Shown: piece by piece, positions 1,835 through 56,318 of the stretch
Position numbering within the stretch: position 1 is the first letter of the stretch
Layout of the letters: the number at the start of each line of letters is the position of its first letter
From: Dendrobates tinctorius
Taxonomy: Eukaryota
DNA length: 64,000 bases
Direction: 5' to 3'
NCBI RefSeq assembly: GCF_039654945.1
Contig: NW_027361829.1
Coordinates: 59,272,001 to 59,336,000, forward strand
Notes under the pieces: generated by a model
Database searches by the model: none
What the model saw: the letters and a program-made list of their open reading frames with translations, nothing else
Told to the model about the DNA's origin: nothing
Program-made: the position numbers and the translations under genes

Positions 1835-3640
1835 CCAAACAGTATAATGGCCCCACAGTCCTACATACAGTATAATTGCCCTCACATAGCCTTCCATACA
1901 GTATAATGGGCCACCTATAGACCTCTATACAGTATAAAGGCCCTACATAGTCCTGCATACTGAATAATGGCTCCACATAGTCCTCCATACAGAATAATGG
2001 GCCCCACATAGACCTCTATATAGGATAATGGGCCCCATATAGTCCTCCATACAGTATAATGGCCCCACATAGTCCTCCATACATAATAATGGGCTCCACA
2101 TACTTAGTCCTATATACAGTACAATGAGCCCCACACAGTCATCCATATAGTATAAAGGCCCCACATAGTCATCCATACAGTATAATAGCCCCACATAGTC
2201 CTCCATACATAATAATGGGCTCCACAAACATAGTCCTATATACAGTATAATGAGCCCCACACAGTCATCCATATAGTATAAAGGCCCCACATAGTCATCC
2301 ATACAGTATAATGACCCCACATAGTCCTCCATATAGTATAATGACCCCAAATTGTCCTCCATACAGTATAATGGCCTTACATAGTGCTCCATACAGTATA
2401 ATGGTGTCACATTGTCATCCATACACTATAATGGCCCCCACATACATAGTCATCCATACAGTATAAAGCCCCACCATAGACCTCCATACAGAATAATGGG
2501 TCCCACATAGTCCTCTATACAGAATAATGGGCCCCATAAAGTTTTCCATATAGTACAATGGCTCCACATTGCCCTCCATAAAGTATAATGGCCACGCATA
2601 ACCATTTATACAGAATAATGAGTCCTACACAGTCATCCATACAGAATAATGGCTCCACATACTCCCCCATACAGAAAAATGGGTCCTACATAGTCCTCTA
2701 TACAGAAGAATAGGCCCCACATAGACATACATACAGAATGTTCTGCCCTCTGAATATAGGGCAGCCTGTTGAGTTATGTGCTCTGAATAAAGCAATCTGT
2801 TTGTATTATGTGTTGGGTTAATTATAGCACCATCTAGTGGTGGCTGAATTTATAGCTTAGTCTTAAACAGCATTCACAGCCTGTGCCTTTAACAGATGCA
2901 ATGCACTTTGGGATTGAAGCAATGCATGTGGTAACAAAGCAGTGTATTCTGGGATGAAGGAGACTCCATCTTCTTTTTGTGTATCTCATAGGATGCACAT
3001 GTGAATTTTGTCCTCCTGTTTAATCCTTGTTTTCCTGTGACTTCTCTACTTGAGTCGCTATCTGGGTAAAGCATATCTGGTAAGAATCAGTGTTTTCTTG
3101 CAATGCAGTGATTTACAGAGATGTTATTTACTGTCTAGCAGCCTGGAGATGTCATTAACTGTTTAGCTACCAGTTCACAGTGAATGTAATAAGGGACTCA
3201 TGTATTCTCACGTTATGTTTGCATCACTGTACACTTTCTATAAATGTATTAGCTGTGTTATCATCTGCCGAATACTTACCTATGTCATTTTGTATTCCTT
3301 GTAGTTTTACCACGCATGTTCTATACTGTTCACCAATAAACAAGATAGACTACAGTCTGCTTATTTGGAACACAGAACAGTGGTTTATGCTAGATGCGCA
3401 ATTGCACACCGTGACAATGTGTATGAAGGCAGAACACAGAATAATGGCCCCCACATACATAGTCCTCCATACAGAATAATGGGTTCCTCATACATAGTTT
3501 TCTATACAGTGTAATGGGCCCCACAGTCATCCAGATAGCATAATGGCCACATATAGTCCTCCATACAGTATAATGGCCTTACATAGTGCTCCATGCAGTA
3601 TAATGGGCACCACATAGTCCTTCACACAGCCTAACGTGCC
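1835..3640. repeat. ~30-bp minisatellite (atacagtataatggccccacatagtcctcc)n, split by a solo LTR; probably internal to a hAT-like element with an end at ~3980
   Basis: Dozens of visible tandem units. Produces the repetitive ORFs 1761-2009 and 1943-2422. tggcaacccctg near 3973-3984 resembles a hAT terminus. Confidence 0.85.
2739..3436 (+). mobile_element. Solo LTR (698 bp), 5-bp TSD
   Basis: TG...CA ends with inverted termini tgttctgccctc / gaaggcagaaca. TSD cagaa at 2734-2738 and 3437-3441. AATAAA at ~3335. Confidence 0.85.
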
Positions 3641-6170: not shown

Positions 6171-6980
6171 TTACACTGTTTTTCACCAACAGTACTTCTT
6201 GCTTCTCTAGTCCCAAATTAAGGCTGTTTTACACATATCTTTTTGCCTTTTTCCCAGAATCACATAGCCTTTCCCATATTTCTTGGTCATTCTAGTTTTA
6301 CTGCAGTATGCTGTGTTTTCTAATGAATTTACATATCAATAAAAATCTGTATTTTATTTTTCAATTTATCTTGCTTTGCTTTTCATTTGAGGTTTAGCAA
6401 ACATAGGAGACTGCCAATTGAGAGGTATAAAAAGGTGTTCACTGATGTAATAATAGCAAGTCCTTTACAGAAAATGTACTTTCTAGAAAGTCTGTGGGTG
6501 CAGTCCTCCAAACGCAAAGTACTTTTTAATATTTTATTAGGGTGACTTTCCAATGAGAAGTCATAGTGATTGAGAACTGTGTATAAAAAAAAGTCCTGAA
6601 CATACTATAGATCTTTGACTATACTGTAGTATTCTGCTTCTGCCAAAAATTGTGAAGAGTGATATACATTGGACTTTGGAATGGTTTTACTGTTCATCTA
6701 CTTTAATAGACTGAAACTCTACACAAATCACTGTCCATCATTATTGGAAAATTTGTTGTGTACGCTTTCACCTTGGTAGAAATGAACAATCAATTAACAA
6801 CCTTTGTGTGCAAAGAGCTCTATGAATATTAGATGGCACACATATCTCATTTAAGCAAGCACACAAGCACCATGACTGTGACCAGGGGCCGCCAAGACAG
6901 GTAAATAGTGCTTACTGTATGAAGGTGATTACATTGAAAACCTAATTTTAATATCAATTAGAAGATGTTCATACTATTGT

Positions 6981-7940
6981 TGTTAGGCGTCGGGTTCCTG
7001 TCGCTGCACAGCAGGAATCCCGAGCTTTACTTCCGGTGGTCTCCTATTCCTCTCCAGCCGCAGAGGAGGTTGCTCAGCAAACTCGTCGGTCCCGGTGCTC
7101 TGCCCAGACCAGCTCCATGGGTTTGCTTGCTGCTGCCACCTCTGGCACAGCTATGGCAATGCATGCTGCTCAGCAACGAGATTCTCCAGGGACTAAGTCC
7201 CCATGTCGGGTCACTGAGCATGCCTGTGGAGTGATCTCTCATTGGAGATCAAGGGTCACGTGCTCAGGTCCTGCTCGTGTTCGGATTGGTCCATCCGAGA
7301 AGGAAGGTCCCAGACGCTCGCGGCTATAAAAGGTTCGCATGGCCGCTCGGCCATGCGCTAGGATAGCCTGTATTTTCAGACTTTTAAGGAGTGAGTGGTG
7401 TATGCATGTATGAATGTCTCTGGTGACTGACTCATTATGAAACCCCTACCCTTGGTATGCATGTGTTGTGCAGCCTAGACTGCTAGCACCCAGGCTTAGG
7501 TGTAGGTAGGTCAGAGTTTGAGTCAGGCATTAGCCATCATCAGTGACTCGGCATGCCTCAGTGCCCCGTGCTCCACACTCCATAGTCAGCGTTTATAGCG
7601 GCGCTCGTGGCAGCGACGCAGTGCGCTCAGTGAGCCTAGAAAGACTCTAACCCCGTGTCCTTAGGGTAGAGTTCTGTGGCCGCTTGCTGTGAGCTCTTTG
7701 GCCGGGCTCTGTGAGTTAAACAGGCTCCGGCATCCACGTTCAGCGGCTGTGCGGCTCTGTGAATTTACAGAGTCAGCTCCTGTTCACATTGGGTGACGTA
7801 ACCCACGTGTGACTGTTTTTACGCCGCTCTATTCTTCCACCATTACTTAGCAACAGTGTACCACCTCTGTACGGTGGACCCCGGGCTGCGAACGCACCTA
7901 CTATTATTTTATAATTTGGTGCGTTCCGCCAGTCCTAACA
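6981..7940 (+). repeat. 5' LTR (960 bp) with TATAAAA at 7325
   Basis: TGTTAGG...CCTAACA inverted termini; aligns with 12938-14456. Confidence 0.92.
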
Positions 7941-7941
7941 T

Positions 7942-7952
7942 TATCCTAGCGC
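7942..7952 (+). promoter_or_regulatory. Self-priming PBS (tatcctagcgc), complementary to the predicted transcript 5' end at 7355-7365
   Basis: No TGG tRNA-type PBS. The reverse complement gcgctaggata occurs exactly 30 nt after the start of the LTR TATA box. Confidence 0.85.
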
Positions 7953-7996
7953 CAGGGTCTGGCTAGTAACAGCGACTGCTGCAGAACATTCAGCAA

Positions 7997-8833
7997 ATGC
8001 AGGGCAGATTGGCGGCTCTCGAGCATCCAGCCTCAGCTGCGGATGTTACTGCGGTCGCTGTTCAGGCAGCCACAGAGGCTGTCTCCCGTGTGACCACTGC
8101 CATCCCTGCCCCGACTTTGTCCCGCCTCCCACTGCCCGAGAAGTTCTCGGGTGATATTGCCTCTTGTAGGGGTTTCGTGAGCTAGTGCTCGATACAGCTG
8201 GAGCTGCTGGCCGCACGATTCCCCTCCGAGTGGGCCAAAGTGGGATTTATTATTTCCCTCTTGTCGGGCAGGGCTTTGGAGTGGGCCACACCGCTGTGGG
8301 AGCGTGGTGATCATGTGGTGCAGAGTGCCTCTCAGTTCTTGGACACTGTGAAGCATGTCTTCCTGGGACCGCGAGTCACCCATGACACCGTGCTCCGGCT
8401 GCTGGCATTGTCACAGGGTTTGTCCATGGTCAGCCACTTTGCCATCCAGTTCCGGACGCTGGCCTCGGAGTTAGAGTGGCCAGATAAGGTCCTCATTCCG
8501 GCATTCTGGAGAGGTTTGGCTGGCCATGAGGACGCTCTGGCCACCAGTGAGATTCCTGCTACACTGGAGGAGCTTATCACCGTCTCCACCCGTATAGACC
8601 TTCGCTTTGCCGAGCGAAGGTTGGAGCGGTCCCAGTGTAGGCAGAGGTTTAGGATGGCATCCAGTTTTGCTAAACCTCTGGAATCTCCCGATCGGGCATC
8701 CGAGCGTCAGGTGGCTTCCCGCAAGGGATCCAGGCCCCGGCCCGCTCGACCCCTGTGATCTGTCATGGTTGCCGACAGTCCGGTCACTTTGCCAACCAGT
8801 GCCCACAGCGGCTGGGAAGGCGCTCGCCCCTAG
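7997..8833 (+). pseudogene. gag (Retrotrans_gag, PEG10/RTL1-like capsid + CCHC knuckle), disrupted
   Basis: LPLPEKFSGD...CRGF, KVGFIISLLSGRALEWATPLWE, CHGCRQSGHFANQCP; in-frame TAG at 8183 and a frameshift near 8700-8755. Confidence 0.9.
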
Positions 8834-11800
8834 TGGCCGTAGGAGGCGGCTCACTAGAATCCGCTGCATTTTCCTCCAAGTTGTCCTTTAAGGGGACACT
8901 TGGGTTTGGTTCTTCCACTCTGGCGGTGGAGGTTTGCGTGGATTCCGGAGCGGAGGGTAATTTTATGTCATCTGCTTTTGCTCAACGGCACACGATACCA
9001 CTGCTTATGATGTCCAAGCCAGTCACCATCAGTGTAGTGAATGGCGCGACTCTGCCCTCACAGATTACCCACCAAACCGCACCACTGTTACTCTCGGTGT
9101 CTCCATCTCATCAGGAGACGATACCCTCGGGCATGACGAGGAGGGATATCAACCAGGTCCTTCTAGGGATCCCCTGGTTGCGGTATCACTCTCCCCATAT
9201 AGAGTGGTCCTTGGGGAGAATTCTTGGTTGGAGTAAGTCATGTGAAGGTAGAGGTCTGAAGGAATGCGTCCAGGTTGCCTCCACCGAGGTCCCCGCAGAT
9301 CGTTCCTCACTTCCCAAACACTATCGACAATATGCGGACGTGTTCTCCAAAAAGGCGGCGGAGACACTTCCACCGCATTGCCCCTATGACTGTCCTATTG
9401 ACCTCTTTCCTGGTGCTGAGCCTCCCCGGGGTCAAGTCTATCCCCTCTCTCTCCCGGAGACAGAGGCCATGTCTCAATACATCAGGGAGAATCTGGCAAG
9501 AGGATTCATTAGGAAGTCAGTGTCACCAGTGGGGCGGGATTCTTCTTCATCCAGAAGAAGAGTGGGGAACTACGTCCTTGCATCAATTACAGGGGTCTTA
9601 ATGCCATCACCGTTAAGAATAAATATCCTCTACCCCTGATATCGGAGCTGTTTGATAGGTTACAGGGAGCGAAAGTGTTCACCAAACTTGATCTGTGGGG
9701 GGCTTACAACCTGATTCGCATCCGTGATGGGGACAAATGGAAGACGGCATTTAACACCTGACACAGGCACTATGAATATCTGGTGATGCCCTGCGGGCTC
9801 TGTAATGCACCAGCCGTCTTCCAAGACTTTGTGAACGATATCTTCTGGGATATGCTTACCACCTCAGTAGTAGTCTATCTGGATGATATTCTCATCTACT
9901 CTCCAGATATTGACTCCCACCGGAGAGATGTTTGCAAAGTTTTCGACCTCCTGTGGGGAAACTCCCTCTATGCCAAGTTGGAGAAGTGTGTGTTTGAGCA
10001 GGAGTCCATGCCTTTCTTGGGGTATATCATCTCTGCCCAGGGTTTGGCCATGGATCCTGCCAAGCTACAGGCGGTGATGGATTGGCAGGAACCCCATTCT
10101 CTCAAAGCGGTGCAGCACTTTATGGGGTTCATAAATTACTATCGCCAATTCATTCCCCACTTCTCAACTTTGGTAGCGCCCTTGGTAGCCCTCACCAAGA
10201 AGGGTGCAAACCCCAAGTTGTGGTCAGAACCTGTCTCCAAGGCCTTCTCCTCTATTAAATCCCATTTCGCTAGCGCTCCCATTCTACATCGCCCTGATGT
10301 GGATAAACCCTTCCTTATGGAGGTGGATGCCTCTTCCGTCGGTGCTGGAGCGGTCCTGTTCCAGAAGGACTCGCAAGGTCGGAAGCACCCATGCTTCTTC
10401 TTCTCCAAGACCTTCACACCAGTGCAGAGGAATTATTCCATTGGCGACAGGGAGTTGCTAGCAATGAAGTTGGCCTTTTCAGAGTGGAGACACCTCCTGG
10501 AGGGGGCTCGTCACCCTTTGCAGGTGTTCACCGACCACAAGAATTTGGTCTATTTACAAACAGCCCAGCGGCTGAATTCTCACCAGGCCAGATGGTCCTT
10601 GTTCTTCTCCCGATTCCACTTCACCCTGCATTTTCTCTCCAGGGAGAAGAACGTCTGGGCCAATGCTCTCTCCCGCTCCATGGTGTCATTGGAGGAGGAG
10701 CAGCCCTGGCTGATAGTCCCGTCTGAGAGCCTGAGGACCGTGGCTCCGGTCTCCCTTGAGTCTGTACCTCCGGGCAAGACTTTTGTCCCTGCCCAACTGC
10801 GACCGGAAGTCATCTCTTGGGCTCATTCGTCCAGGCTGGGTGGACATTTTGGGACCAAATGGACCTCTGAGCTTCTGGCGAGGATGTACTGGTGGCAGCA
10901 TATGGCCTGTGACGTCAGGGACTATATACGGGCATGCGTCTCTTGCGACCAGAATCGGCCCTCTCGGCAGCGGCACACTGGGTTACTCTATCCTCTGCCG
11001 GTTGCTGACAGGCCCTGGGAGATGGTCGGTATGGACTTTGTGGTGGATCTTCCCAAGTCCAGTGGCAGCACCGTCATTTGGGTGATCACCGATTATTTCT
11101 CCAAGATGGTGCATCTGGTACCACTCTCTCGGCTACCTTCGGCACGGGGCCTGGCAGCGTTGTTTATTAAATATGTTTTCTGCCTGCACGGCATGCCGGA
11201 TAAGATTGTCAGCGACCGGGGTCCTCAGTTTGTGTCTCGGTTCTGGAGAGAGCTCTGTTCTCTGCTCAGCATAGAGCTAAATCTCTCCTCGGCCTATCAT
11301 CCCGAGACGAACTGGTTGGTTGGGAGAGCCAACCAGACCCTGGTGACATATCTGCGACATTTTGTCTCGGCCAGGCAGGATGATTGGGCACCCTTGCTGC
11401 CGTTGGCGGAGTTCGCCTTGAACAACCCGGTGGCCGACTTCACCGCTCAGACCCCATTCCTCTTAAATTACGGCCAGCATCCGCGCGTCCCCGTACCCAT
11501 GCCCGTGTCGTCCACCGACTCTAGGGTGGCAGACTGGGTGGTGGAGGCACGTGACATTTGGGATCGCATGCAGGATGCTATCCGGGCCTCCAATGAGAGA
11601 ATGAGGTCCTCCGCTGACACTCGTCGGCGCCCGGCTCTAACCTTCGCCCTTGGTGACATAGTGTGGCTCTCCGCTCGAAAAAAATCAGGCTGCGGGTGGA
11701 ATCCGCTAAGTTCACACCGCGCTATATTGGCCCTTTCAAGGTCCTCGAGCAGATCAACCCTGTGGTCTACCGCCTGGCTCTTCCACCACACTTGACTATC

Positions 11801-11960
11801 TCGGACACGTTTCATGTGTCTCTCCTTAAGCCGGTGCACATGTCCTGGTTTTCTGAGCCATCTGCTGGAACCATCAGACCTGTCGTCAGACGATTTTGAG
11901 GTCAATGCCATCGTGGGATGCGGGATGCAAGATGATGCGGGGCAAATTTTTTTTTACTTA

Positions 11961-12803
11961 GGCTGGTTTCACACTTGCGTTTTTTGCGCTGTACTTTAGC
12001 GCTAAAAAACGCATGCGTTTTTTCCTATATTTTGCATGGGATGCGCTTATGTGCGCATGCACATACGTTTGTATGCGTTTTTCCGAGCATGCGCTTTTTT
12101 GTGGTGTGCGCTCGGGCGCACAAAATGCATCCTGTTGCATTTTTTGAGCGTCCGACTTGCCTCAAAAAAACGCATGCGCGCGCAATGCGTTTTTTTTACA
12201 GCAAGACACCCATTATAAGTCTATGGGTGCGCATATGTGCGCATTGCCATGCTCATGTATGCGTTTTTTTGCGCATGCGTTTTTTGTTGACCATTAGTTA
12301 GATAATGGAATTTAGGGGTTTGGGTTAGAGTTAGTGTTAGTTAAGGGGGTTTAGGGTTAGTGTTAGTTAAGGGGGTTTAGGGTTAGGGTTTGGGTTAGTA
12401 TGGTTTGGTTAAGGGTTAGGGTTTAGGGTTAGTTAGGGTTTATGGTTAGGGTAGGGTTAGGTTAAGGGTTAGGGTTAGTATGGTTTGGTTAAGGGTTAGG
12501 GTTAAGGTCAGGGTCAGGGTTAGGGTAAGATTTGGTTAAGGGGTAGGGTTAGGGTCAGGGTCAGGGTTAGTAAAGTCATGGCTTGGGTTAGTGTGAGGGG
12601 CCAACTAATGTTGGAAAAAAACGCAAACGCGGTAAAAACGCACTAAAAACGCATACAAACGCATAAAAACGCTGCTTTTTTTCATGCATGCTCATAAAAA
12701 TGCTTGAAAAAAAAAGCAGCATTTGTATGCATTTGTATGTGTTTTTTCCATGCTTTTTTTGCAGGAAAAACGCGCTGCAAAAAAAGCAAGTGTGAAGGTA
12801 GCC
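11961..12803. mobile_element. Harbinger-type MITE with internal degenerate (TTAGGG)n, inserted in the chromodomain
   Basis: tta|ggctggtttcacacttgc ... gcaagtgtgaaggtagcc|tta. Removing it restores TAC TTA GTG GAT TGG (YLVDW). Confidence 0.88.
12310..12592 (+). repeat. Degenerate telomere-like (TTAGGG/TCAGGG) array
   Basis: Repeated gggtta/gggtca units seen directly. Confidence 0.85.
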
Positions 12804-12937
12804 TTAGTGGATTGGAAGGGTCATGGTCCAGAGGCGCGGACCTGTGAGCCAGTGGAAAACATCCACGCTCCTCTTCTCATTGCGGAATTTGAGCGGAGCG
12901 AGGCTCAGAGAGGAGGGGGCCCTAGGAGGGTGGGTAA

Positions 12938-14456
12938 CGTTAGGCGTCGGGTTCCTGTCGCTGCACAGCGGGAATCCCGAGCCTTACTTCCGGTGGTCTC
13001 CCATTCCTCTCCAAAAAACATGAAGTATGGAGGGCACAGCTAGCAGTAACACGGGTTCACCACGGATGTACAAGGAAACATTATGCGAAAAAGAAGAAAA
13101 AGAGGTACATCCAACAAGGGAACTCCAGTACAAAAATATCAAAGTGAAAAACATGTATAAATTTTATTGAGAGCATGTACACAACACAGCAAGATAAAAA
13201 CACTTAAACACACAAGAAGCATGTCACAATCATATGATGCTGAAAAAGTGACTTTCCCACAGAAGATACCCCTATTAAACAACAATTTGATTTAGGTATG
13301 AATGCAGCAGACAACTGGGCAAAAAAGAAATAAAAGAATATCTATGACGCTCAACATATGAGCATAGATCATATATTGTGAAAAAGCCCCAAAAAGGGCA
13401 ACACATTAAACACAGCACCATGCAGCAAAGGAACCCAGTAATTCAGAACAGCCAAGAGATTATATTGAGGCTGTTCAAGGATTGATAACCTTTAAGTTGG
13501 AGAAAGGGAAATGGGAAACCCTTACATATCCAGAGGTGAAGTGTTGGCAATGGACGGTCAAAAGGAATAATAGCCCAATTACAAATGAAGCCAGTAGCCT
13601 GCGGGGTAAATCAAAGAGGGAACCGCACCCAGTCGCAGAGGAGGTTGCGCAACTCTGGCACAGCTATGGCAATGCATGCTGCTCAGCAACGAGATTCTCC
13701 AGGGAATAAGTCCCCATGTCGGGCCACTGAGCATGCCTGTGGAGTGATCTCACATTGGAGATCAAGGGTCACGTGCTCAGGTCCTGCTCGTGTTCGGATT
13801 GATCCATCCGAGAAGCCAGAAAGGTCCCGGATGCTCGCGGCTATAAAAGGTTCGCATGGCCGCTCGTCCATGCGCTAGGATAGCCTGTATTTTCAGACTA
13901 TAAGGAGTGAGTGGTGTATGCACTTATGAATGTCTCTGGTGACTGACTCATTATGAAACCCCTACCCTTGGAATGCATGCGTTGTGCAGCCTAGTCTGCT
14001 AGCGCCCAGGCTTAGGCGTAGGTAGGTCAGAGTTTGAGTCAGGCATTAGCCATCATCAGTGACTCGGCACGCCTCAGTGCCCCATACTCCACACTCCATA
14101 GTCAGTGTTTATAGCGGCGCTCATGGCAGCGACGCCGCGCATTCAGTGGGCCTAGAAGGACTCTAACCCCGTGTCCTTGGGGTAGAGTTCTGTGGCCGCT
14201 TACTGTGAGCTCTTTGGCCGGGCTCTGTGAGTTAAACAGGCTCTGGCATCCACGTTCAGCGGCTGTGCGGCTCTGTGAATTAACAGAGTCCGCTCCTGTT
14301 CACATTGGGTGACGTAACCCACGTGTGACTGTTTTTACGCCGCTCTATTCTTCCGCCATTACCTAGCAGCAGTGTACCACCTCTGCACGGTGGACCCCGG
14401 GCTGCGAACGCAACTACTATTATTTTATAATTTGGTGCGTTCCGCCAGTCCTAACA
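12938..14456 (+). repeat. 3' LTR with a ~620-bp foreign insertion (13014-13631) and a ~65-bp deletion
   Basis: Starts cgttaggcgtcggg (T>C at position 1), follows the PPT, ends cctaaca. Confidence 0.9.
13014..13631. mobile_element. Unclassified insertion in the 3' LTR, possibly a Penelope-like fragment
   Basis: Absent from the 5' LTR; A-rich; tttatt (minus-strand polyA signal) at ~13163. Confidence 0.4.
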
Positions 14457-15190: not shown

Positions 15191-15727
15191 TAAAATGAAA
15201 TAAATCAAACCTCACCAATCACCTTGTTCTTTTCTTTTCCCCTTCCTTTGTTGCATGTATCCTCTAACAGCTTAACTCCATGCCATGGCCTCAATTTCTC
15301 ACTAGGCCTCTGATGTAACTTTACACTGTGCCATTGTGGCCCACATCATGAGGTCAGATATTACGATGTGTGTTTTCCAAGGCACAGTCAATGCAGTGAC
15401 GTCAGAGGCCTAGCCTGCGATTCAAGACAAGGAGTGAAGCGGCCAAAAAGATGTGCGCAACAAGGGAAAGGAGAAAAGAAGAGGAGTGGACATCCAATAG
15501 TGGGCTGCGAGACATGTGAGCATTATTTCATTATTATTATTTTTTTTTTAACTCCTAAACGCTGGGGTTACTTAAGAGTGTAATAAGGAATATTTAATCC
15601 CCAGGAAATACCTTTGCTCTGCATCAAGTTTACCTATAAAATTTGCAGTGTTTGCCAAATTTTATCTTGCAGATTCGATCATCTCTAGTCTATTATAGTT
15701 GTCTGTCTTCTTGCAGGTTCCCATTAA

Positions 15728-18700
15728 CCGCTTCACCCCCAAGGGTGGTTTGCACGTTCATGACCGGGCCAATTTTTACAATTCTGACCACTGTCCCTTT
15801 ATGAGGTCATAACTCTGGAACGCTTCTATGGATCCCGGTGATTCTGACATTCTTTTCTCGAGACATATTGTACTTCATGATAGCGGTAAAATTTCATTCA
15901 AATAACTTGCGTTTATTTGTGAAAAAAAATGGAAATTTGGCAAAAATTTTGAAAATTTTGCAATTTTCCAACTTTTAATTTTTATGCCCTTAAATCACAG
16001 AGATACGGCACACAAAAAACTTGATAACTAACATATCCCACATGTTTACTTTACATAAGCACAATTTTGGAACCAAAATTTTTTTTTGTTAGGAAGTTAT
16101 AAGGGTTAAAAGTTGACCAGCGATTTCTCATTTTTACAACACCATTTTATTTTTAGGACCACATCACATTTGAAGCCACTTTGAGGGGTCTATATGATAG
16201 AAAATACCCAAAAGTGACACCATTATAAAAACTGCACCCCTTAAGGTGCTTAAAACCACATTCAAGGAGTTAATTAACCCTTTAGGTGCGTCACAGGAAT
16301 TTTTTTGAATATTTAAAAAAAAATGAACATCTAACTTTTTTTCACAAAAAAAATATTTCAGGTTCAATTTTTTTTATTTTACCAAGGGTAACAGGAGAAA
16401 TTGGACTGCAAAAGTTATTGTTCAATTTGTCCTGAGTACGCTGATACCTGATTTGTGGGGGGGAACGACTGTTTCGGCGCATGGCAGAGCTCAGAATGAA
16501 AGGAGCGCCGTTTGACTTTTTCAATGCAAAATTGGCTGGAATTCAGATCGGACGCCATGTCACGTTTGGAGAGTCCCTGATGTACCTAAACAGTGGAAAC
16601 CCCCTACAAGTGACTCCATTTTGGAAACTAGACCCCCCCAAGGAACTTATCTAGATATGTGGTGCGAACTTTGAACCCACAAGGGCTTTACAGAAGTTTA
16701 TAACGTACAGCGGTACAATTAAAAAATCATTTTTGTGGAAAAAATATGATCTTTTCACCCCAATTTTTTATTTTCCCAAGGGTAACAGGTCCCTAAAAGT
16801 TATTGTGCAATTTGTCCTGAGTATGCTGATACCCCACATGTGGGGTAAACGACTATTTGGGCGCATGGCAGAGCTCGGAAGGAAAGCAGCGCCATTTGAC
16901 GTTTTTGGCTGGAATTGAGATCGGACACCATGTCGCGATTGGAAAACCCCTGATGTACCTAAACAGTGGAAACCCCCCACAAATGACACCATTTTTGAAA
17001 CTAGACCCCCTAAGGAACTTATCTAGATGTGTGGTGAGAACTTTGAACCCCCAAGGGCTTCACAGAAGTTTATAACATAAAGCCGTACAATTAAAAAATC
17101 ATATTTTTTCCACAAAAATGATCTTTTCACCCTCAATTCTTATTTTTCCAAGGGTAACAGCACCCTAAAAGTTATTGTGCAATTTGTCCTGAGTACGCTG
17201 ATACCCCACATGTGGGGGTAAACCACTATTTGGGCGCATGGCAGAGCTCGGAAGGGAAGAAGCGCCATTTGACGTTTTTGGCTGGAATTGAGATCGGACA
17301 CCATGTCGCGATTGGAAAACCCCTGATGTACCTAAACAGTGGAAACCCCCCACAAATGACACCATTTTGTAAACTAGGCCCCCCAAGGAACTTATCTAGA
17401 TGTGTGGTGAGCACTTTGAACCCCCCAGTGCTTCACAGAAGTTTATAACGCCCGGGCGTGAAAATAAAAAATTTGTATTTTTTCCACAAACATGATCTTT
17501 TAGTCACCATTTTTTCTTATTTTCCCAAGGGTAACAGGAGAAATTGAACCCCAAAAGTTGTTGTCCAATTTGTCCTGAGTATGCTGATACCCCATATGTG
17601 GGAGAAAACTACTGTATGGACACACGTCAGGGCTCGGAAGGGAAGTAGTGACGTTTTGGAATGCAGACATTGATGGAATGGTCTGCGGGTGTCATGTTGC
17701 CTTTGGAGAGCCCCTAATGTACCTAAACAGTGGAAACACCCACAAATTACCCCATTTTGGAAACGAGAACCCCTAAGGAACTTATCTAGATGTGTGGTGA
17801 GCACTTTGAACCCCCAGTGCTTCACAGAAGTTTATAATGCCCGGGCATGAAAATAAAAAAATCGTATTTTTTCCACAAACATGATCAATTAGTCGCCAAT
17901 TTTTTCATTTTCCCAAGGGTAACAGGAGAAATTGGACCGCAAAAGTTGTTGTCCAATTTGTCATGAGTACGCTGACACCCCATATGTGGGAGAAAACTAC
18001 TGTATGGACACACGTCTGGGCTCGGAAGGGAAGCAGTGCCATTTTGGAATGCAGACTTTGATGGAATGGTCTGCGGGTGTCATGTGCGTTTGGAGAGCCC
18101 CTGATGTACCTAAACTATTGAAACTCCCCACAAGTGACCCCATTTTGGACACTAGACCCCCCACGGAACTTATCTAGATGTGTGGTGAGCACTTTGAACC
18201 CCCAAGTGCTTCACAGAAGTTTATAACGCTCGGACGTGAAAATAAAAAAATCATTTTTTTCCACAAAAATGATATTTTTGCCCCCAATTTTTTATTTTCC
18301 TAAGGGTAACAGGAGAAATTGGACCCCAAAAATTGTTTTGCAATTTGTCCTGAGTAGGCTGATACCCTACATGTGGGGGTAAAACACTGTTTGGGCACAT
18401 GGCAGAGCTTGGAAGGGAAGGAGCACCATATGACTTTTTCAACTCAGAATTGGCTGGAATTGAGATCAGACGCAATGTTGCATTTGGAGAGCCCCTGATG
18501 TGCCCAAACAGTGGAAACCCCCAATTCTAACTCCAACCCGAACCCCAAAACACCCCTAACCGCAATCTCAGCCCTAACCCAAGCCCTAACCCTAACCCTA
18601 ACCCTAACGGAAAAATGGAAATAAATACATTTTTTTAATTTTATTATTTTTCCCTAACTAAGGGGGTGATAACGGGGGGTTTGATTTACTATTTATGGCG

Positions 18701-20070
18701 GTTTTTATGTTTGGCGGCTGTCGCACGCTAAAAGACGCTTTTTATTGTAAAAATAGTTTTTGCATCACCACATATTGAGAGCTATAATTTTTCCGAATTT
18801 TGACCCACCGAGTCATGTGAGGTCTTATTTTTTGCGGGACGAGTTGACGTTTTTACTGGTACCATTTTCGGGCACGTGACATTTTTTGATCGCTTTTTAT
18901 TCCGATTTTTGGGATGCAGAATGAACAAAAACCAGCGTTTCATGAATTTCTTTTGGGGGAGTGCGTTTACACCGTTCCGCGTGCGGTAAAATTGATAAAG
19001 CGGTTTTATTCTTCGGGTCAGTACGGTTACAGCGATACCTCATTTAGGTCTTTTTTTATGTTTTGGCGCTTTTATGCAATGAAAACTATTTTATATAAAA
19101 AATAATTATTTTTGCATCGCTTTATTCTGCGAGCTATAACTTTTTTATTTTTTCGCTGATGATGCTGTGTGGCGGCTCGTTTTTTGCGGGACAAGATGAC
19201 GTTTTAAGCGGTACCATGGATATTTATATGCGTCTTTTTGATCGCGCGTTATTACACTTTTTGTTTGGCGGTATGATAATAAATCATTATTTTTTGCTTC
19301 GTTTTTTATTTTTATTTTTTAAGGGGTTCGCTAAAGGGGTTAACTAATGGGACAGTTTTATAGGGCGGGTCGTTACGGACGCGGCGATACCTAATGTGTA
19401 CTTTTATTGTTTTGGGTTTTTTTTTACTTTCAAAAAATGAATTTATTGGGGAATATTTTTTTTTTTTTTACTAATTTATTTGGCGATTTTTTAAAAATTA
19501 TTTTTACACTTTTTATTTTTTTTTACTTTATTACATAGTCCCAGGTGGGACATCACTGTCCTGTGACAGATCGCTGATCTGTCACATCACAGATCACTGT
19601 GACAGATCAGCGATCTGACACAGGCACTGCAGAAGGCTTCCTCATGCTTGCGCTTTGCAGGCACTGAGGAAGCCAGCTTCCTGCAGGCCCCCGAAGGCCC
19701 CCGTCGCCATCTTGGATTCGGGGGCCTGGAGGAAAGGAGTCCCCCGCAGCAGCGCTGCACATTGCGCTGCCGTGGGGGGCTCAGGGAAGCAAGGAGGGAG
19801 CCCCCTCCCTGCCGATGCTTCCCTTTAACTCCCGGTACACCGCGATCATGTTTGATCGCGGTGTGCAAGGGATTAACGTGTCGGGGCGGTCCGTGACCGC
19901 CCCTGACACATTGTGCCGGGTGTCAGCTGTGATAATCAGCTGACACCCGGCCGCGATCAGCGGCGCTCACCACGTGGGCGCCGCTGATCGCGGTGGACGT
20001 ACTATCCCGTCCATGGGCATAGGGGCCCGGGTCCCATGGACGGGATAGTACGTCGGATGTCAGGAAGGGG
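15728..20070 (-). mobile_element. 4.3-kb non-autonomous TTAA element (piggyBac-like CCC/GGG ends), copy 1
   Basis: TTAA at 15724-15727 and 20071-20074. Internal 372-390 bp tandem array 16190-18525, (CCCTAA)n 18530-18607, subterminal hairpins. Reverse complement of copies 2 and 3. Confidence 0.88.
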
Positions 20071-38415: not shown

Positions 38416-41400
38416 CCCCTTTCTGACATCCGACGTATAATTCCATCCATGTGACCTGGGCCTGTCTGACTATGCACGAAATAGTACGTCATTTCTTTAA
38501 TGCGACACTGAGACCAAACTCGCGGTGATCGCATTAACCCCTTAACTTCAATTGACGTAATATTCCGTCCATGTGACCATGGACCTAATTACCATGGACG
38601 GAATATTACGTCATCGCGATCAGCGGTGCCCACGTGGTGAGCGCCGCTGATCGCGGCCAAGTGTCAGCTAATTATCATAGCTGACACCCGGCACAATGTG
38701 TCAGGGGCGGTCACGGACCGCCCCCGACACGTTAACCCCTTGCACACCGCGATCAAACTCGATCGCGGTGTACCGGGGGTTAAAGGGAAGCATCGGCAGG
38801 GAGGGGGCTCCCTCCGTGCTTTCCTGAGCCCCCCACGGCAGCGCAATGTGCAGCGCTGCTGCCGGGGGCTCCTTTCCTGCAGGTCCCCGGATCGAATATG
38901 GCGACGGGGACCTCCGGGGGCCTGCAGGAAGCTGGCTTCCTCAGTGCCTGCAAAGCGCAGGCATGAGGAAGCCTGTGCAGTGCCTATGACAGATCGCTGA
39001 TCTGTCACAGTGATCTGTGATGTGACAGATCAGCGATCTGTCACAGGACAGTTATGTCCCCCCTGGGACATTGTAATAAAGTAAAAAAAAAAGTGTAAAA
39101 ATAATTTAAAAAAATCGCTAATTCAAAAAAAAAAAAAAAAATATTCCCCAATAAATTCATTTTTTGGAAATAATAAAAAAAAACAAAAAACAATAAAAGT
39201 ACACATATTTGGTATCGCGCATCCGTAACGACCCGCCCTATAAAACTGTCCAAATAGCTAACCCCTTAAGCGAACCCCTTAAAAAATAAAAATAAAAAAC
39301 GAAGCAAAAAAATAATGATTTATTATCACACCGCCGAACAAAAAGTGCAATAACGCGCGATCAAAAAGACGCATATAAATATCCATGGTACCGCTGAAAA
39401 CGTCATCTTGTCCCGCAAAAAACCAGCCATGATACAGCATCATCAGCGAAAAAATAAAAAAGTTATAGCTCGCAGAATAAAGTGATGCAAAAATAATTAT
39501 TTTTTATATAAAATTGTTTTCATTGCATAAAAGCACCAAAACATAAAAAACGACCTAAATGAGGTATTGCTGTAACCGTACTGACCCGAAGAATAAAACC
39601 GCCTTATAAATTTTACCACACCCGGAACGGCATAAACGCACCACCCAAAAGAAATTCATAAAACGCTGGTTTTTGTTCATTCTGCGTCCCAAAAAACGAA
39701 ATAAAAAGCGATCAAAAAATGTCACATGCCCGAACATGATACCAATAAAAGCGTCAACTCGTCCCGCAAAAAATAAGACCTCACATGACTCGGTGGGTCA
39801 AAATATGGAAAAATTATAGCTCTCAATATGTGGTGATGCAAAAACTATTTTTACAATAAAAAGCGTCTTTTAGCGTGCGACAGCTGCCAAACATAAAAAC
39901 CGCCATAAATAGTAAATCAAACCCCCCGTTATCACCCCCTTAGTTAGGGAAAAATAATAAAATTAAAAAAATGTATTTATTTCCATTTTCCCATTAGGGT
40001 TAGGGTTAGGGCTAGGGCTAGGGTTAGGGCTAGAATTGGGGGTTTCCACTATTTGCGCACATCAGGTGCTCTCCAAACGCAACATGGCGTCTGATCTCAA
40101 TTCCAGCCAATTCTGCATTGAAAAAGTCAAATGGTGCTCCTTCCCTTCCAAGCTCTGCCATGCACCCAAACAGTGTTTTACCCCCTCATATGGGGTATCA
40201 GATCAGCCTACTCAGGACAATTGGCAAAACAACTTTTGGGGTCCTATTTCTCCTGTTGCCCTTAGGAAAATAAAAATTTTGGGGCAAAAATATCATTTTT
40301 GTGGAAAAAAATTTTTTTGTTATTTTCACGCCTGGGCGTTATAAACTTCTGTGAAGCACTTGGGGGTTCAAAGTTCTCACCACACATCTAGATAAGTTCC
40401 TTGGGGGTCTAGTTTCCAAAATGGGGTCATTTGTGGGGGGTTTCCACTGTTTTGGTACATCAGGGGCTTTCCAAACGCGACATGGTGTCCGATCTCAATT
40501 CCAGCCCAAAAAGTCAAATGGCGCTGCTTGCCTTCCGAGCTCTGCCATGTGCCCAAATAGTCATTTACACCCACATATGGGGTATCAGCGTACTCAGGAC
40601 AAATTGCACAAAAACTTTTAGGGTCCTGTTACCCTTGGGAAAATAAAAATTGGGGGTGAAAAGATCATTTTGTGGAAAAAATATGATTTTTTAATTGTAC
40701 CGCTGTACATTATAAACTTCTGTGAAGCCCTTGTGGTTTCAAAGTTCTCACCACATATCTAGATAAGTTCCTTAGGGGGTCTAGTTTCAAAAATGGGGTC
40801 ACTTGTGGGGGGTTTCCACTGTTTAGGTACATCAGGGGCTCTCCAAACGCGACATGGCGTCCGATCAGAATTCCAGCCAATTTTGCATTGAAAAAGTCAA
40901 ACGGCGCTCCTTCCCTTCTGAGCTCTGCCATGCGCCGAAACAGTGGTTCCCCCCCACATATCAGGTGTCAGCGTGCTCAGGACAAATTGCACAATAATTT
41001 CTGCAGTCCAATTTCTCCTGTTACACTTGGTAAAATAAAAAAAATTGAACCTGAAGTAATTTTTTTTGTGAAAAAAAGTTAAATGTTAATTTTTTTTAAA
41101 TATTCAAAAAATTCCTGTGATGCACCTGAAGGGTTAATAAACTCCTTGAATGTGGTTTTAAGCACCTTAAGGGGTGCAGTTTTTAAAATGGTGTCACTTT
41201 TGGGTATTTTCTATCATATAGACCCCTCAAAGTGGCTTCAAATGTGATGTGGTCCGTAAAAATGAGAGATCGCTGGTCAACTTTTAACCCTTATATCTTA
41301 CTAACAAATAAAAATTTTGGTTCCAAAGTTGTGCTGATGTAAAGTAAACATGTGGCAAATGTTACTTATTAACTTTTTTGTGTGCCATATCTCTGTGATT

Positions 41401-41664
41401 TAAGGGCATAAAAATTCAAATTTGGAAAATTGCGGAATTTTCAAAATTTTCGCCAAATTTCCGTTTTTCTCACAAATAAACGCAAGTTATATGAATGAAA
41501 TTTTACCACTAACATGAAGTACAACATGTCACGAGAAAACAATGTCAGAATCACAAGGATCCATGGAAGCGTTTCAGAGTTATTACCTCATAAAGGGACA
41601 GTGGACAGAATTGTAAAAATTGGCCCGGTAGTTAACGTGCAAACCACCCTTGGTAGTGAAGGGG
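38416..41664 (+). mobile_element. TTAA element copy 2 (3.2 kb), with a second internal terminus at 38538
   Basis: TTAA at 38412-38415, 38534-38537 and 41665-41668. Only ~3 tandem units; short TTAGGG tract at 39995-40031. Confidence 0.88.
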
Positions 41665-43052
41665 TTAAACTTCCGGCGCCATCTTACCTGTGGGTAGATG
41701 GTTTTGGCATCCTGGGGGTGTCCCTGCCCACCCGGACTCATGAACACTGTGATAAGCTGTTCAATTCTGAACAGCCTATCGCAGCCTCTCTCATTGTTTC
41801 AGGCAATAAGATTGTATGAGAAAGTTGGGATATGTAGCTGGCAGATGAAGCAAAAGTTTGATCTTTCAGTGATTGTAGAGATGCTAAAAAGTTACAATCA
41901 CCAAAGTATCCATGTATAGGAAAAATCAGGTGTCTGAAACTTAGGTTGGATTAACATTTGTGGTTGGGTCCGCAGCTTTTATGCCACATTCATTCGCATG
42001 CATCTTGTTTTCCTATCTCTAACGTTGTGGATGCAGGTACATGCGTTCGTATGCTTTAGGCTGCATTTCACTACAAATGCGTTGTTTTGGGTTTTGCGGC
42101 TAACGCAACATGTTGCAATTTTGGAGGTGGCAATTTGCCGCCGCCAGACGCATGCAGCCGCTTGCGGAAGGAATGCGTCGAAACAATGCATTACAGTCTA
42201 TGAGAATGAATGTTTGCGCAAGCACACACGTTCGCTAGCATTTCCGTACGCATGTGTTTTTCCAGAGTAAATGTGTCTAGACACTGGTTAGCCAGCCCCC
42301 ATGCCTAGAAAGATAAAAAGAGGGTGTGGGCACACATTGTCCATTACTCTACAGACACTGGAGACTGCAAGACAAGAGAAGACATCTGTGAAGACACTGA
42401 ACTAAAGCCAAATGTGAGTATACAACCTAATATCTGTGTGTCTTTTGGAATTTTACTCTCTGCCGTCTGTAATATTCTGTCTCTTTCTTGCAGCATTCTT
42501 CAACATGCCCTCTTCAAGCCCTGAGCACACAGGACAGGATTCTAAAGTGTGTACCCTTGCAACTATGGTTGGTAAGTACCACTGAACATATGTGCCAAAA
42601 TCATCTTTTTTCTTTTATAGAACACTTCATCAAGTGGCCAGGATCTGGACCAACAGGAGCAGGAGCAACAGAGGGAGGCAGAGATATCGGTGGTCAGACG
42701 GCGTGTAAGTTTTTTTGGTATTTTTTTGGTGATTAGCTATTTTTTCTGTTTTTTTTTTTGTTTTCTGGGAGTGTTGCAACTTTTTCTGCCGTGGTTTTTT
42801 TCTTGGATTTTTGTTGTTTTTTCTGGGTTTTTTTGGTTTTTTTTCTTATGGGATTGTGGCTAATTTTTCTGCCGTGGTTTTTTTTTCTTGGATTTTGGCT
42901 GTATTTTAGTGGGGTTTTGTTATGGGATTGTGGCTAATTTTTCTACAGTGTTTTTTTTATTTTCTTGGAGTGTTGCTATTTTTTTTTTTTACTTTTGTTG
43001 GCCGATTTTCCTTGTTTTATCTTGACAACAGTAAAGTTTTATTCATTTCTAG

Positions 43053-50932: not shown

Positions 50933-51188
50933 CTTACAGTCAATGAAAACCCAAAAGTAATTATCAAAAAAAAATTAGAATAATTATCTAAAGTTACCTG
51001 CAAAATTTTCCTAAGCATTTAAAAAGGTCCCATAGTCTGTTTAAGTAGGCTCCACAATCATAGGGAAGACTGCTGACTTAACAGATGTCCAGAAGGCAGT
51101 TATTGAAACTCCACAATAAGGGTAAACCACAAAAGGCCATTGCTAAAGAAGCTGGCTGTTCACAGAGTGCTGAATCCAAGCATATTAA

Positions 51189-54100
51189 CCCCTTTCTGCC
51201 ATCCGACGTACTATCCCGTCCATGGGACCTGGGCCCCTATGCCCATGGACGGGATAGTACGTCGGCGCGATCAGCGGCGCCCACGTGGTGAGCGCCGCTG
51301 ATCGCGGCCGGGTGTCAGCTGATTATCACAGCTGACACCCGCCACAATGTGTCAGGGGCGGTCACGGACCGCCCCCGACACGTTATCCCTTTGCACACCG
51401 CGATCAAACATGATCGCGGTGTACCGGGGTTTAAAGGGAAGCATCGGCAGGGAGGGGGCTCCCTCCGTGCTTCCCTGAGCCCCCCACGGCAGCGCAATGT
51501 GCAGCGCTGCTGCGGGGGGCTCCTTTCCTCCAGGCCCCCGAATCCAAGATGGCGATGGGGGCCTTCGGGGGACTGAGGAAGCTGGCTTCCTCAGTGCCTG
51601 CAAAGCGCAAGCATGAGGAAGCCTTCTGCAGTGCCTGTGTCAGATCGCTGATCTGTCACAGTGATCTGTGATGTGACAGATCAGCGATCTGTCACAGGAC
51701 AGTGATGTCCCACCTGGAACTATTTAATAAAGTAAAAAAAAAAAAAAAAAAAAAGTGTTAAATAATTTAAAAAAAAAAAATCGCCAAATAAATTAGAAAA
51801 AAAAAAAAAATATTCCCCCAATAAATCCATTTTTTGGAAATAAAAAAAAAACAAAAAAAAACAATAAAAGTACACATATTAGGTATCTCCGCGTCCGTAA
51901 TGACCCGCCCTATAAAACTGTCCCATTAGTTAACCCCTTTAGTGAACCCCTTAAAAAATAAAAAACGAAGCAAAAAATAATGATTTATTATCATACCGCC
52001 AAACAAAAAAGTGTAATAACGCGCGATCAAAAAGACGCATATAAATATCCATGGTGCTGCTGAAAACATCATCTTGTCCCGCAAAAAACGAGCTGCCACA
52101 CAGCATCATCAGCGAAAAAATAAAAAAGTTATAGCTCGCAGAATAAAGCGATGCAAAAATAATTATTTTTTATATAAAATAGTTTTCATTGCATAAAACC
52201 GACAAAAACATAAAAAAACGACCTAAATGAGGTATCGCTGTAACCGTACTGACACGAAGAATAAAACCGCTTTATCAATTTTACCGCACGCGGAACGGTG
52301 TAAACGCACCCCCCCAAAAGAAATTCATGAAACGCTGGTTTTTGTTCATTCTGCGTCCCAAAAATAGGAACAAAAAGCGACCAAAAATTGTCACGTGCCC
52401 GAAAATGGTACCAATAAAAACGTCAATTCGTCCCGCAAAAAATAAGACCTCACATGACTCGGTGGGTCAAAATACGGAAAAATTATAGCTCTCAATATGT
52501 GGTGATGCAAAAACTATTTTTACAATAAAAAGAGTCTTTTAGCGTGCGACAGCTGTCAAACATAAAAATCGCCATAAATAGTAAATCAAACCCCCCGATA
52601 TCACCCCCTTAGTTAGGGAAAAATAATAACATTAAAAAAAAAGTATCTATCTCCATTTTCCCATTAGGGTTAGGGTAAGGCTGTGTGCACACGCTGCGGA
52701 TTAGGTGCGGATTCATCCGCGTGGATTTTGTAAAATCCGCAGGTGAAACCGCAGGTTTTACCTGCGGATTACTCTGCGGTTTTGTCCTGCGGTTTTTCAT
52801 CTCCTCAATAGAGGAGATGGCAAACCGCAGGAGAATCCGCAGAAAGAATTGACATGTCAATTCTTTCTGCGGATTGAAAACCGCAGATAATCCGCGCGGA
52901 AAATTCCGCACCGTCTGCACTGCGGTTTTTGATTCCCATAGGGAATCATGGTACTGTACACCGCAGCAGAAACTGCTGCGGGTCCGCAGCAGCCAAAACC
53001 GCTGCGGAACTGCAGCAAAATCCGCAGCGTGTGCACACAGTCTTAGGGTTAGGGCTAGGGTTAGGGTTAGGGCTAGGGTTAGGGCTCAGATTAGGGTTAG
53101 GGGTGTGTTGGGGTTAGGGTTGGAGTTATAATTGGGGGTTTCCACTGTTTGGGCACATCAGGGGCTCTCCAAATGCAACATGGCGTCTGATCTCAATTCC
53201 AGCCAATTCTGAGTTGAAAAAGTCAAATGGTGCTCCTTCCCTTCCAAGCTCTGCCATGCGCCCAAACAGTGTTTTACCCCCACATGTAGGGTATCAGCCT
53301 ACTCAGGACAAATTGCAAAACAATTTTTGGGGTCCAATTTCTCCTGTTACCCTTAGGAAAATAAAAAATTGGGGGCAAAAATATCATTTTTGTGGAAAAA
53401 AATGATTTTTTTATTTTCACGTCCGAGTGTTATAAACTTCTGTGAAGCACTTGGGGGTTCAAAGTGCTCACCACACATCTAGATAAGTTCCATGGGGGGT
53501 CTAGTGTCCAAAATGGGGTCACTTGTGGGGAGTTTCAATAGTTTAGGTACATCAGGGGCTCTCCAAACGCACATGACACCCGCAGACCATTCCATCAAAG
53601 TCTGCATTCCAAAACGTCACTGCTTCCCTTCCGAGCCCCGACGTGTGTCCATACAGTAGTTTTCTCCCACATATGGGGTGTCAGCGTACTCAGGCCAAAT
53701 TGGACAACAACTTTTGGAGGTCCAATTTCTCCTGTTACCCTTGGGAAAATGAAAAAATTGGGGACTAATTGATCATGTTTCTGGAAAAAATACGATTTTT
53801 TTATTTTCATGCCCTGGCATTATAAACTTCTGTGAAGCCCTTGGGGGTTCAAAGTGCTCACCTCACATCTAGATAAGTTCCTTAGTGGGTCTAGTTTTCA
53901 AAAAGGGGTCATTTGTGGGGATTTCCACTGTTTAGGTACATTAGGGGCTCTCCAAAGGCAACATGACACCCGCAGACCATTCCATCAAAGTCTGCATTCC
54001 AAAACGTCACTACTTCCCTTCCGAGCCCCGACGTGTGCCCATACAGTAGTTTTCTCCCACATATGGGGTATCAGCATACTCAGGACAAATTGGACAACAA

Positions 54101-56318
54101 CTTTTGGGGTCCAATTTCTCCTGGTACCCTTGGGAAAATAAAAAAATGGTGACTAAAAGATCATGTTTGTGGAAAAAATACGAATTTTTTATTTTCAAGC
54201 CCGGGCGTTATAAACTTCTGTGAAGCACTGGGGGGTTCAAAGTGCTTACCACACATCTAGATAAGTTCCTTGGGGGGTCTAGTTTTCAAAATGGGGTTAT
54301 TTGTGGGGGGTTTCCACTGTTTAGGTACATTAGGGGCTCTCCAAAGGCAACATGACACCCGCAGACCATTCCATCAAAGTCTGCATTCCAAAACGTCACT
54401 ACTTCCCTTCCGAGCCCCGACGTGTGCCCATACAGTAGTTTTCTCCCACATATGGGGTATCAGCATACTCAGGACAAATTGGACAACAACTTTTGGGGTC
54501 CAATTTCTCCTGGTACCCTTGGGAAAATAAAAAAATGGTGACTAAAAGATCATGTTTGTGGAAAAAATACAAATTTTTTATTTTCCTTCCCGGGCATTAT
54601 AAACTTCTGTGAAGCACTGGGGGGGTCAAAGTGCTCACCACACATCTAGATAAGTTCCTTAGGGGGTCTAGTTTCCAAAATAGTGTCATTTGTGGGGGGT
54701 TTCCACTGTTTTGGTACATCAGGAGTTTTCCAAACGCGACATGGTGTCCGATCTCAATTCCAGCCAAAAACGTCAAATGGCGCTGCTTCCCTTCCGAGCT
54801 CTGCCATGCGCCCAAATAGTGGTTTACCCCCACATGTGGGGTATCAGCGTACTCAGGACAAATTGCACAATAACTTTTAGGGTCCTGTTACCCTTGGAAA
54901 GATAAGAATTGAGGGTGAAAAGATCATTTTTTTGGAAAAAATATGATTTTTTAATTGTATGGCTTTATGTTATAAACTTCTGTGAAGCCCATGGGGGTTC
55001 AAAGTTCTCACCAAACATCTAGATAAGTTCCTTAGGGGGTCTAGTTTCCAAAATGGTGTCATTTGTGGGGGGTTTCCACTGTTTTGGTACATCAGGGGTT
55101 TTCCAAACGCGACATGGTGTCCGATCTCAATTCCAGCCAAAAACGTCAAATGGCGCTGCTTCCCTTCCGAGCTCTGCCATGCGCCCAAATAGTGGTTTAC
55201 CCCCACATGTGGGGTATCAGCGTACTCAGGACAAATTGCACAATAACTTTTAGGGTCCTGTTACCCTTGGGAAAATAAAAATTGGGGTGAAAAGATCATT
55301 TTTGTGGAAAAAATATGATTTTTTAATTGTACCGCTGTACGTTATAAACTTCTGTAAAGCCCTTGTGGGTTCAAAGTTCTCACCACATATCTAGATAAGT
55401 TCCTTGGGGGGTCTAGTTTCCAAAATGGGGTCACTTGTAGGGGGTTTCCACTAATTAGGTACATCAGGGACTCTCCAAACGTGACATAGCGTCCAATCTG
55501 AATTCCAGCCAATTTTGCATTGAAAAAGTCAAACGGCGCTCCTTCCATTCTGAGCTCTGCCATGCACCGAAACAGTGGTTCTCCCCCACATATCAGGTAT
55601 CTGCGTACTCAGGACAAATTGCACAATAACTTTTGCAGTCCAATTTCTCCTGTTACCCTTGGTAAAATAAAAAAAATTGAACCTGAAGTATTTTTTTTAT
55701 GAAAAAAAGTTAGATGTTCATTTTTTTTTTAAATATTCAAAAAAATTCCTGTGACGCACCTAAAGGGTTAATAAACTTCTTGAATGTGGTTTTGAGCACT
55801 TTAAGGGGTGCAGTTTTTAGAATGGTGTCACTTTTGGGTATTTTCTATCATATAGACCCCTCAAAGTGGCTTCAAATGTGATGTGGTCCTAAAAATAAAA
55901 TGGTGTTGTAAAAATGAGAAATCGCTGGTCAACTTTTAACCCTTATAACTTCCAAACAAAAAAAAATTTTGGTTCCAAAATTGTGCTGTGAATTGTGCTA
56001 AACATGTGGGAAATGTTAGATATCAAGTTTTTTGTGTGCCGTATCTCTGTGATCTAAGGGCATAAAAATAAAAAGTTGGAAAATTGCGAAATTTTCAAAA
56101 TTTTCGCCAAATTTCCGTTTTTCTCACAAATAAACGCAAGTTATTTGAATGAAATTTTACCACTAACATGAAGTACAATATGTCACGAGAAAACAATGTC
56201 AGAATCACCGGGATCCATGGAAGCGTTCCAGAGTTATGACCTCATAAAGGTACAGTGTCAGAATTGTAAAAATTGGCCCGGTCATGAACGTGCAAACCAC
56301 CCTTGGGGGTGAATGGGG
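51189..56318 (+). mobile_element. TTAA element copy 3 (5.1 kb)
   Basis: TTAA at 51185-51188 and 56319-56322; ~7 tandem units at 53130-55860; TTAGGG tract interrupted by a MITE. Confidence 0.9.
52679..53042. mobile_element. Harbinger MITE inserted in the telomere-like tract
   Basis: taa|ggctgtgtgcacacgctgcgg ... ccgcagcgtgtgcacacagtc|tta; absent from copies 1 and 2. Confidence 0.88.

Follow-up and report, generated by a model that had tools for sequence, protein, structure and literature searches.

Tf1 of Schizosaccharomyces pombe primes reverse transcription from its own RNA. According to PMC7175516, the primer consists of the first 11 bases, and RNase H cuts between bases 11 and 12. Tf1 needs three duplexes, and the source in which this structure is described presents self-priming as something that Tf1/sushi elements have in common (10.1101/2022.12.06.519325). 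Self-primers are described in the Tf1/sushi group from yeast and vertebrates (PMC6317226), and self-priming is implicated from fungi to vertebrates (PMC4600332). As these sources present it, self-priming by vertebrate Tf1/sushi elements is implicated or predicted, and experiments come only from yeast; an earlier note on the DNA considered here, which stated that the mechanism had been proposed for vertebrate members, agrees with that record. A survey of plant elements predicts self-priming for 12% of its elements, under a rule that asks for at least 10 nt of complementarity, beginning 0-5 nt past the end of the 5' LTR (PMC6317226). Gypsy elements are described as abundant and germline-expressed in Oophaga pumilio, and further context is given by PMC3601003, PMC5341516, PMC7472051, PMC4340606, and PMC6278860.

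A literature search for papers on self-priming in frog or fish elements found none that were relevant, with subscription papers and supplements mostly outside its range. Butler et al. 2001, which is cited in the literature, reportedly deals with vertebrate Tf1/sushi members.

The window analyzed here, a 64-kb stretch of Dendrobates tinctorius DNA, contains a decayed chromovirus of a frog/fish clade whose primer-binding site (PBS) is the exact complement of a stretch of its own LTR. With a probability of about 0.9, the family to which it belongs primes in the manner of Tf1, from the 5' end of its own RNA and not from a tRNA, with the start, the cut, and the extension modeled on Tf1. The locus is a real and well-supported case of self-priming, which published work had predicted for Tf1/sushi elements, those of vertebrates among them. 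It adds a compensatory change within one family to the known picture and leaves the accepted picture unchanged.

The element and its copy state

A decayed Ty3/gypsy element of ~7.5 kb occupies positions 6981-14456, and its domains follow the Gypsy order of gag, protease, RT, RNase H, and integrase. The parts of the element lie on the forward strand, except for one inserted element to which no strand is assigned. The 5' LTR (6981-7940, 960 nt) has 7-nt inverted termini (TG...CA). The 3' LTR (12938-14456) differs from it in its first base, contains an insertion of 618 nt (13011-13628) as well as a ~60-nt gap, and retains a copy of the TATA box and primer; the two LTRs agree at 855 of 897 aligned bases. 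The insertion is A-rich and has no second copy in the window. The element is flanked by a target duplication of 5 nt, in which one base is mismatched, and a purine-rich tract, recognized from its sequence, lies ahead of the 3' LTR (12907-12937). Neither AATAAA nor ATTAAA was found in the LTR at 6981-7940.

The coding region of this copy is broken. The gag gene (7970-8758; Retrotrans_gag, E 6e-9) is interrupted by a stop at 8183-8185, and pol (8674-11896), which includes protease, RT, RNase H, integrase, and SH3_Tf2-1, is spread over several frames. The chromodomain is split by an inserted element of 843 nt (11961-12803), which has imperfect terminal inverted repeats, a TTA duplication on each side, and a core built of degenerate TTAGGG-like repeats at ~12310-12580; judged by its 3-nt duplication, it may be a Harbinger-type miniature element. 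Beyond the insertion, the C-terminal piece of the integrase chromodomain (12804-12893) gives over its last 30 amino acids a weak match to PF00385 (Chromo; E 0.0018, 18.6 bits, under the cut-off of 25.1), and the N-terminal piece has no profile match. PF00385 is present in most close relatives. The earlier note had called the priming signal of this element intact, which holds for the signal but not for the copy that carries it.

The 64-kb window contains no further copies of the element. Elsewhere in it, three related multi-kilobase repeats (15700-19900, 38500-41700, and 51100-56300, one inverted relative to the other two) each contain arrays of 372-393-nt units.

Among named proteins, the best match belongs to Ranitomeya imitator (89%). 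A tree built from 50 RT/RNase H segments, which spans only 290 amino acids and includes no named Tf1 or sushi-ichi reference, pairs the window element with Ranitomeya imitator (100/100; nearest, at 92%), nests it in a frog group (95/84), and places it within a frog/fish clade of chromoviruses (97/94). The clade also includes Xenopus, Leptobrachium, Pseudophryne, and fish proteins, together with three further loci (L078-L080).

The predicted priming signals and their duplexes

The PBS (7942-7952) begins 1 nt past the end of the 5' LTR at 7940. The sequence behind 7940 has no TGG, so that the site is, as had been observed, not of the TGG type, and ARAGORN finds no tRNA genes in the window. Positions 7355-7365 are the exact 11-nt complement of the PBS and make up the predicted self-primer, nucleotides 1-11 of the predicted RNA. 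This stretch begins 30 nt after the TATA box (TATAAAA, 7325-7331), the sole TATAWAW in the LTR, and has a pyrimidine-purine step at -1/+1. An unaltered copy of the 11-mer stands in the 3' LTR at 13872-13882, where the TATA box is at 13842. Each of these motifs lies where the earlier note had placed it.

Complementarity of this length is uncommon. A complement of at least 11 nt anywhere in the LTR, with no credit for position, appears in 20 of 20,000 dinucleotide shuffles, and 14 of 3,940 internal positions used as a pseudo-PBS reach 11 nt. In the predicted fold of an RNA spanning 7355-7996, the primer/PBS helix closes the structure, with pair probabilities of 0.77-1.0 over its 11 pairs, and the domain that it closes is large and stable (z -4.5).

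The inverted repeat that had been noticed in U5 ahead of the PBS is confirmed (core arms 7890-7898 and 7918-7926). The 9-bp repeat is by itself not rare (173 of 2,000 shuffles), but it lengthens into a stem-loop at 7883-7935 that folds better than any of 200 sequences obtained by shuffling the last 70 nt. Pair probabilities are 0.99-1.0 for 13 of 14 pairs tested, and a change at 7933 in contigs from the family preserves its pair in the stem. A possible third duplex would join a candidate leader partner at 7684-7711 to 7953-7975 (-30.1 kcal/mol). No shuffled leader out of 200 pairs as well; the duplex is rich in G-U pairs, and no covariation was seen in it. A different leader duplex, adjoining the U5 stem, is unsupported, with 51 of 500 shuffles as good. 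In a simple test on 19 relatives, shuffles are beaten by a leader duplex confined to the last 110 nt in one relative and by a U5 stem in about four. Only part of the three-duplex structure known from Tf1 is apparent here, the third duplex being uncertain.

Beside the TATA box lies a palindrome of 10+10 nt with a 2-nt spacer (7336-7357; arms 7336-7345 and 7348-7357), with a putative function only. The earlier note saw a perfect 10-bp hairpin between the TATA box and the primer. The hairpin is real and non-random, such a stem appearing in 13 of 2,000 LTR shuffles, but its fold has 9 bp and a loop of 4 nt; moreover, it is not simply between the two sites, because its right arm includes the first 3 nt of the primer. 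Its copy in the 3' LTR has one mismatch. In the same place in 19 relatives the longest stem is 2-7 bp, and a general role for the palindrome in self-priming is thus rejected. Judged by this distribution, the palindrome appears specific to the family or to the copy. It would fall outside the 5' end of an RNA beginning at 7355 and is probably a feature of the promoter or 3' end peculiar to this family, not a part of the priming duplex.

The palindrome is the sole unexplained part of the finding. An unlikely proposal is that this very high-copy family has added a control, in which the palindrome at the U3/R border masks the first primer bases in U3-containing RNA (the copy in the 3' LTR, read-through transcripts, or RNA started upstream) and leaves only correctly started RNA able to prime. 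In the same proposal, subfamilies that switch primer and PBS together would allow a test, from genomes only, of PBS copying from the element's own primer in vertebrate elements.

Variation within the family and among relatives

Family contigs from four runs (X1, X7, X10, and X9, from three organisms and four studies) were aligned to 7250-8020 at 80% likeness. Among the 40 of 189 variants listed, one lies in the primer, at 7362, and one in the PBS, at 7945. The primer variant, T, makes up 75, 85, 95, and 61% of summed depth in X1, X7, X10, and X9, and the PBS variant, A, makes up 85, 98, 96, and 92%, where summed contig depth is not copy number. These two positions are pairing partners, G-C in the window copy and U-A in the family contigs, and pairing is preserved. 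Given one variant per 11-mer, the chance that the two would be partners and preserve the pair is ~1/33 (1/11 x 1/3). The variants sit on separate short contigs, with shares that differ (61 versus 92% in X9), and because the contigs are short they are unphased. In the window copy, both LTRs read G and the PBS reads C, which suggests that the G-C form likely went through replication. The comparison of the PBS with the +1 region that the earlier note had proposed thus reveals a compensatory pair, on unphased contigs, and such a change within the family is better evidence than complementarity alone.

Past 7977, contig depth drops at least ~250-fold in two runs (X1 and X7) and by a factor of 12 to 17 in the other two (X10 and X9). 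Far more copies have the LTR and PBS in common than the leader and gag start (7952-8020). Non-autonomous derivatives or divergence at the start of gag could account for the drop, as could an edge effect or a change local to the window copy.

Related elements provide a second line of evidence. The 87 loci examined comprise seven from viral contigs (L001-L007) and 80 from a scan covering part of the collection. The viral contigs hold 77 loci, of which L001-L007 entered the LTR test and five more distant ones plus L033 served as outgroup; the remaining 64 matched RT/RNase H only, at low identity, and were left out. A repeat pair is present in 32 of the 87 loci, and 12 remain after removal of 18 contig-end overlaps and two loci (L082 and L141) that resemble non-LTR repeats. 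The pair maps the LTR end in these 12 relatives, and in eight of them the element's own LTR holds 9-12 nt complementary to its own PBS. Of the other four, three, all of one family, have 8 nt, and L116 has only 6 nt. At random internal positions, at least 9 nt is reached in 131 of 3,600 cases and 8 nt in 447 of 3,600. In L116 (region 3419-3450), the 6-nt complement lies behind an inferred LTR end, in an element with an LTR pair; the case is either an exception or the product of a mis-set boundary.

A blind scan that also required a TATA-like motif matched 11 of 70 loci versus 1 of 70 controls. One match (L123, 4.3 kb from pol) is a likely false hit and was left out of later sets. The complements are private to each element: a PBS compared with the LTR of another element reaches at least 9 nt in 7 of 380 pairs, two of them between copies with the same PBS. 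In a set of 19 relatives, chosen for having a complement and including three near-duplicates, the complement starts at a pyrimidine-purine step in 16, and the complement-paired site starts 1-3 nt past the LTR end. Within the frog/fish clade, all three testable loci (L078-L080) have a complement, each with different letters and each starting at a T-G step, as in the window element. The complementarity that had been anticipated in related families is therefore found, as private complements of 9-12 nt in 8 of 12 relatives and in 3 of 3 from the clade. A TGG-type site is present near the contig start of one distant element (L007, 121-140), which has a long branch in the tree and is probably tRNA-primed.

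Mechanism, alternatives, and known systems

In the proposed pathway, RNA would start at 7355 and its first 11 nt would fold back onto 7942-7952. By analogy with Tf1, the RNase H of the element would cut after about nucleotide 11, and RT would extend the freed 3' end into U5. The element does encode an RNase H domain. Two indirect observations, the distance of 30 nt from the TATA box and the pyrimidine-purine step, fit the prediction that the complement is the RNA 5' end; we infer the start site and the cleavage by analogy with the yeast element. Taken together, the complement at TATA+30, the compensatory change, the private complements of relatives, and the clade placement support the claim of the earlier note that this family self-primes. 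Elements without a tRNA primer would escape tRNA-fragment silencing, as may be reasoned from PMC7472051.

The pairing might instead be a structural RNA element that acts in packaging, dimerization, or translation control, with priming by something else. The large, stable domain closed by the helix suits such a role, and covariation demonstrates pairing, not priming. However, the partner lies 1 nt past the LTR end (1-3 nt in the 19 relatives), where minus-strand synthesis must start, no TGG site is present at that end, and in Tf1 this arrangement has been shown to serve priming (PMC7175516). A purely structural role is accordingly very unlikely. If the RNA started upstream of the palindrome, the palindrome would form a hairpin at the 5' end, and release of the primer would require its cutting or opening; this would be a variant of Tf1 priming. 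The non-random nature of the palindrome fits this variant, as does its position in a bin (7328-7353) that is among the most deeply covered in all four runs; in addition, the predicted fold of an RNA starting at 7336 has the palindrome competing with the first two primer pairs. Yet an RNA beginning at 7336 or earlier would start no more than 11 nt from the only TATA box, whereas 7355 sits at +30 with its pyrimidine-purine step, and the stem is found in none of the 19 relatives and is mismatched in the 3' LTR. The upstream start is very unlikely indeed.

A fragment of a host tRNA, or some other small RNA, might prime at this site and leave the LTR match secondary; the half-tRNA primers of Ty1/copia lineages are a precedent (PMC6317226). 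Here PBS sequences vary by family and track their own LTR, and subfamilies differ at 7945 and 7362 jointly, which would not be expected if the primer were a fixed host RNA; an Rfam search of 6900-8200 also returned no matches. Such a primer is extremely unlikely. As for a chance match, ~1 in 1,000 shuffled LTRs contains an 11-nt complement somewhere and many elements were scanned, but chance does not account for the position at TATA+30 and is refuted by the paired variants at 7362 and 7945 and by the recurrence of private complements, with other letters, in relatives. Its probability is close to nil. Self-priming from the RNA 5' end is the preferred reading.

The closest described systems are the vertebrate Tf1/sushi chromoviruses (GyDB V-clade: sushi-ichi, Amn-ichi/ni/san). 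They have the order Gag-PR-RT-RH-IN-chromodomain, which the window element shares up to IN, with a candidate chromodomain behind it, and likewise have no tRNA PBS and an LTR stretch complementary to the PBS. The window element differs in having its own primer sequence and a TATA-side palindrome that is missing in 19 relatives, and its distance from primer to LTR end is 586 nt, versus 316-415 nt in the three fish-like loci. Tf1 and Tf2 of Schizosaccharomyces pombe, as well as Tj1 and Tosmo1-3, share the 11-nt complement between the predicted 5' end and the PBS and a U5 stem beside the PBS. Experiments established the start site, the RNase H cut, and the three-duplex structure of Tf1, whereas in the window element the start and cut are predicted by analogy and the third duplex is uncertain. 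The Tcn1-clade chromoviruses of plants (REXdb, PMC6317226) belong to hosts of a different kingdom, and the window element satisfies the rule that their survey uses to predict self-priming.
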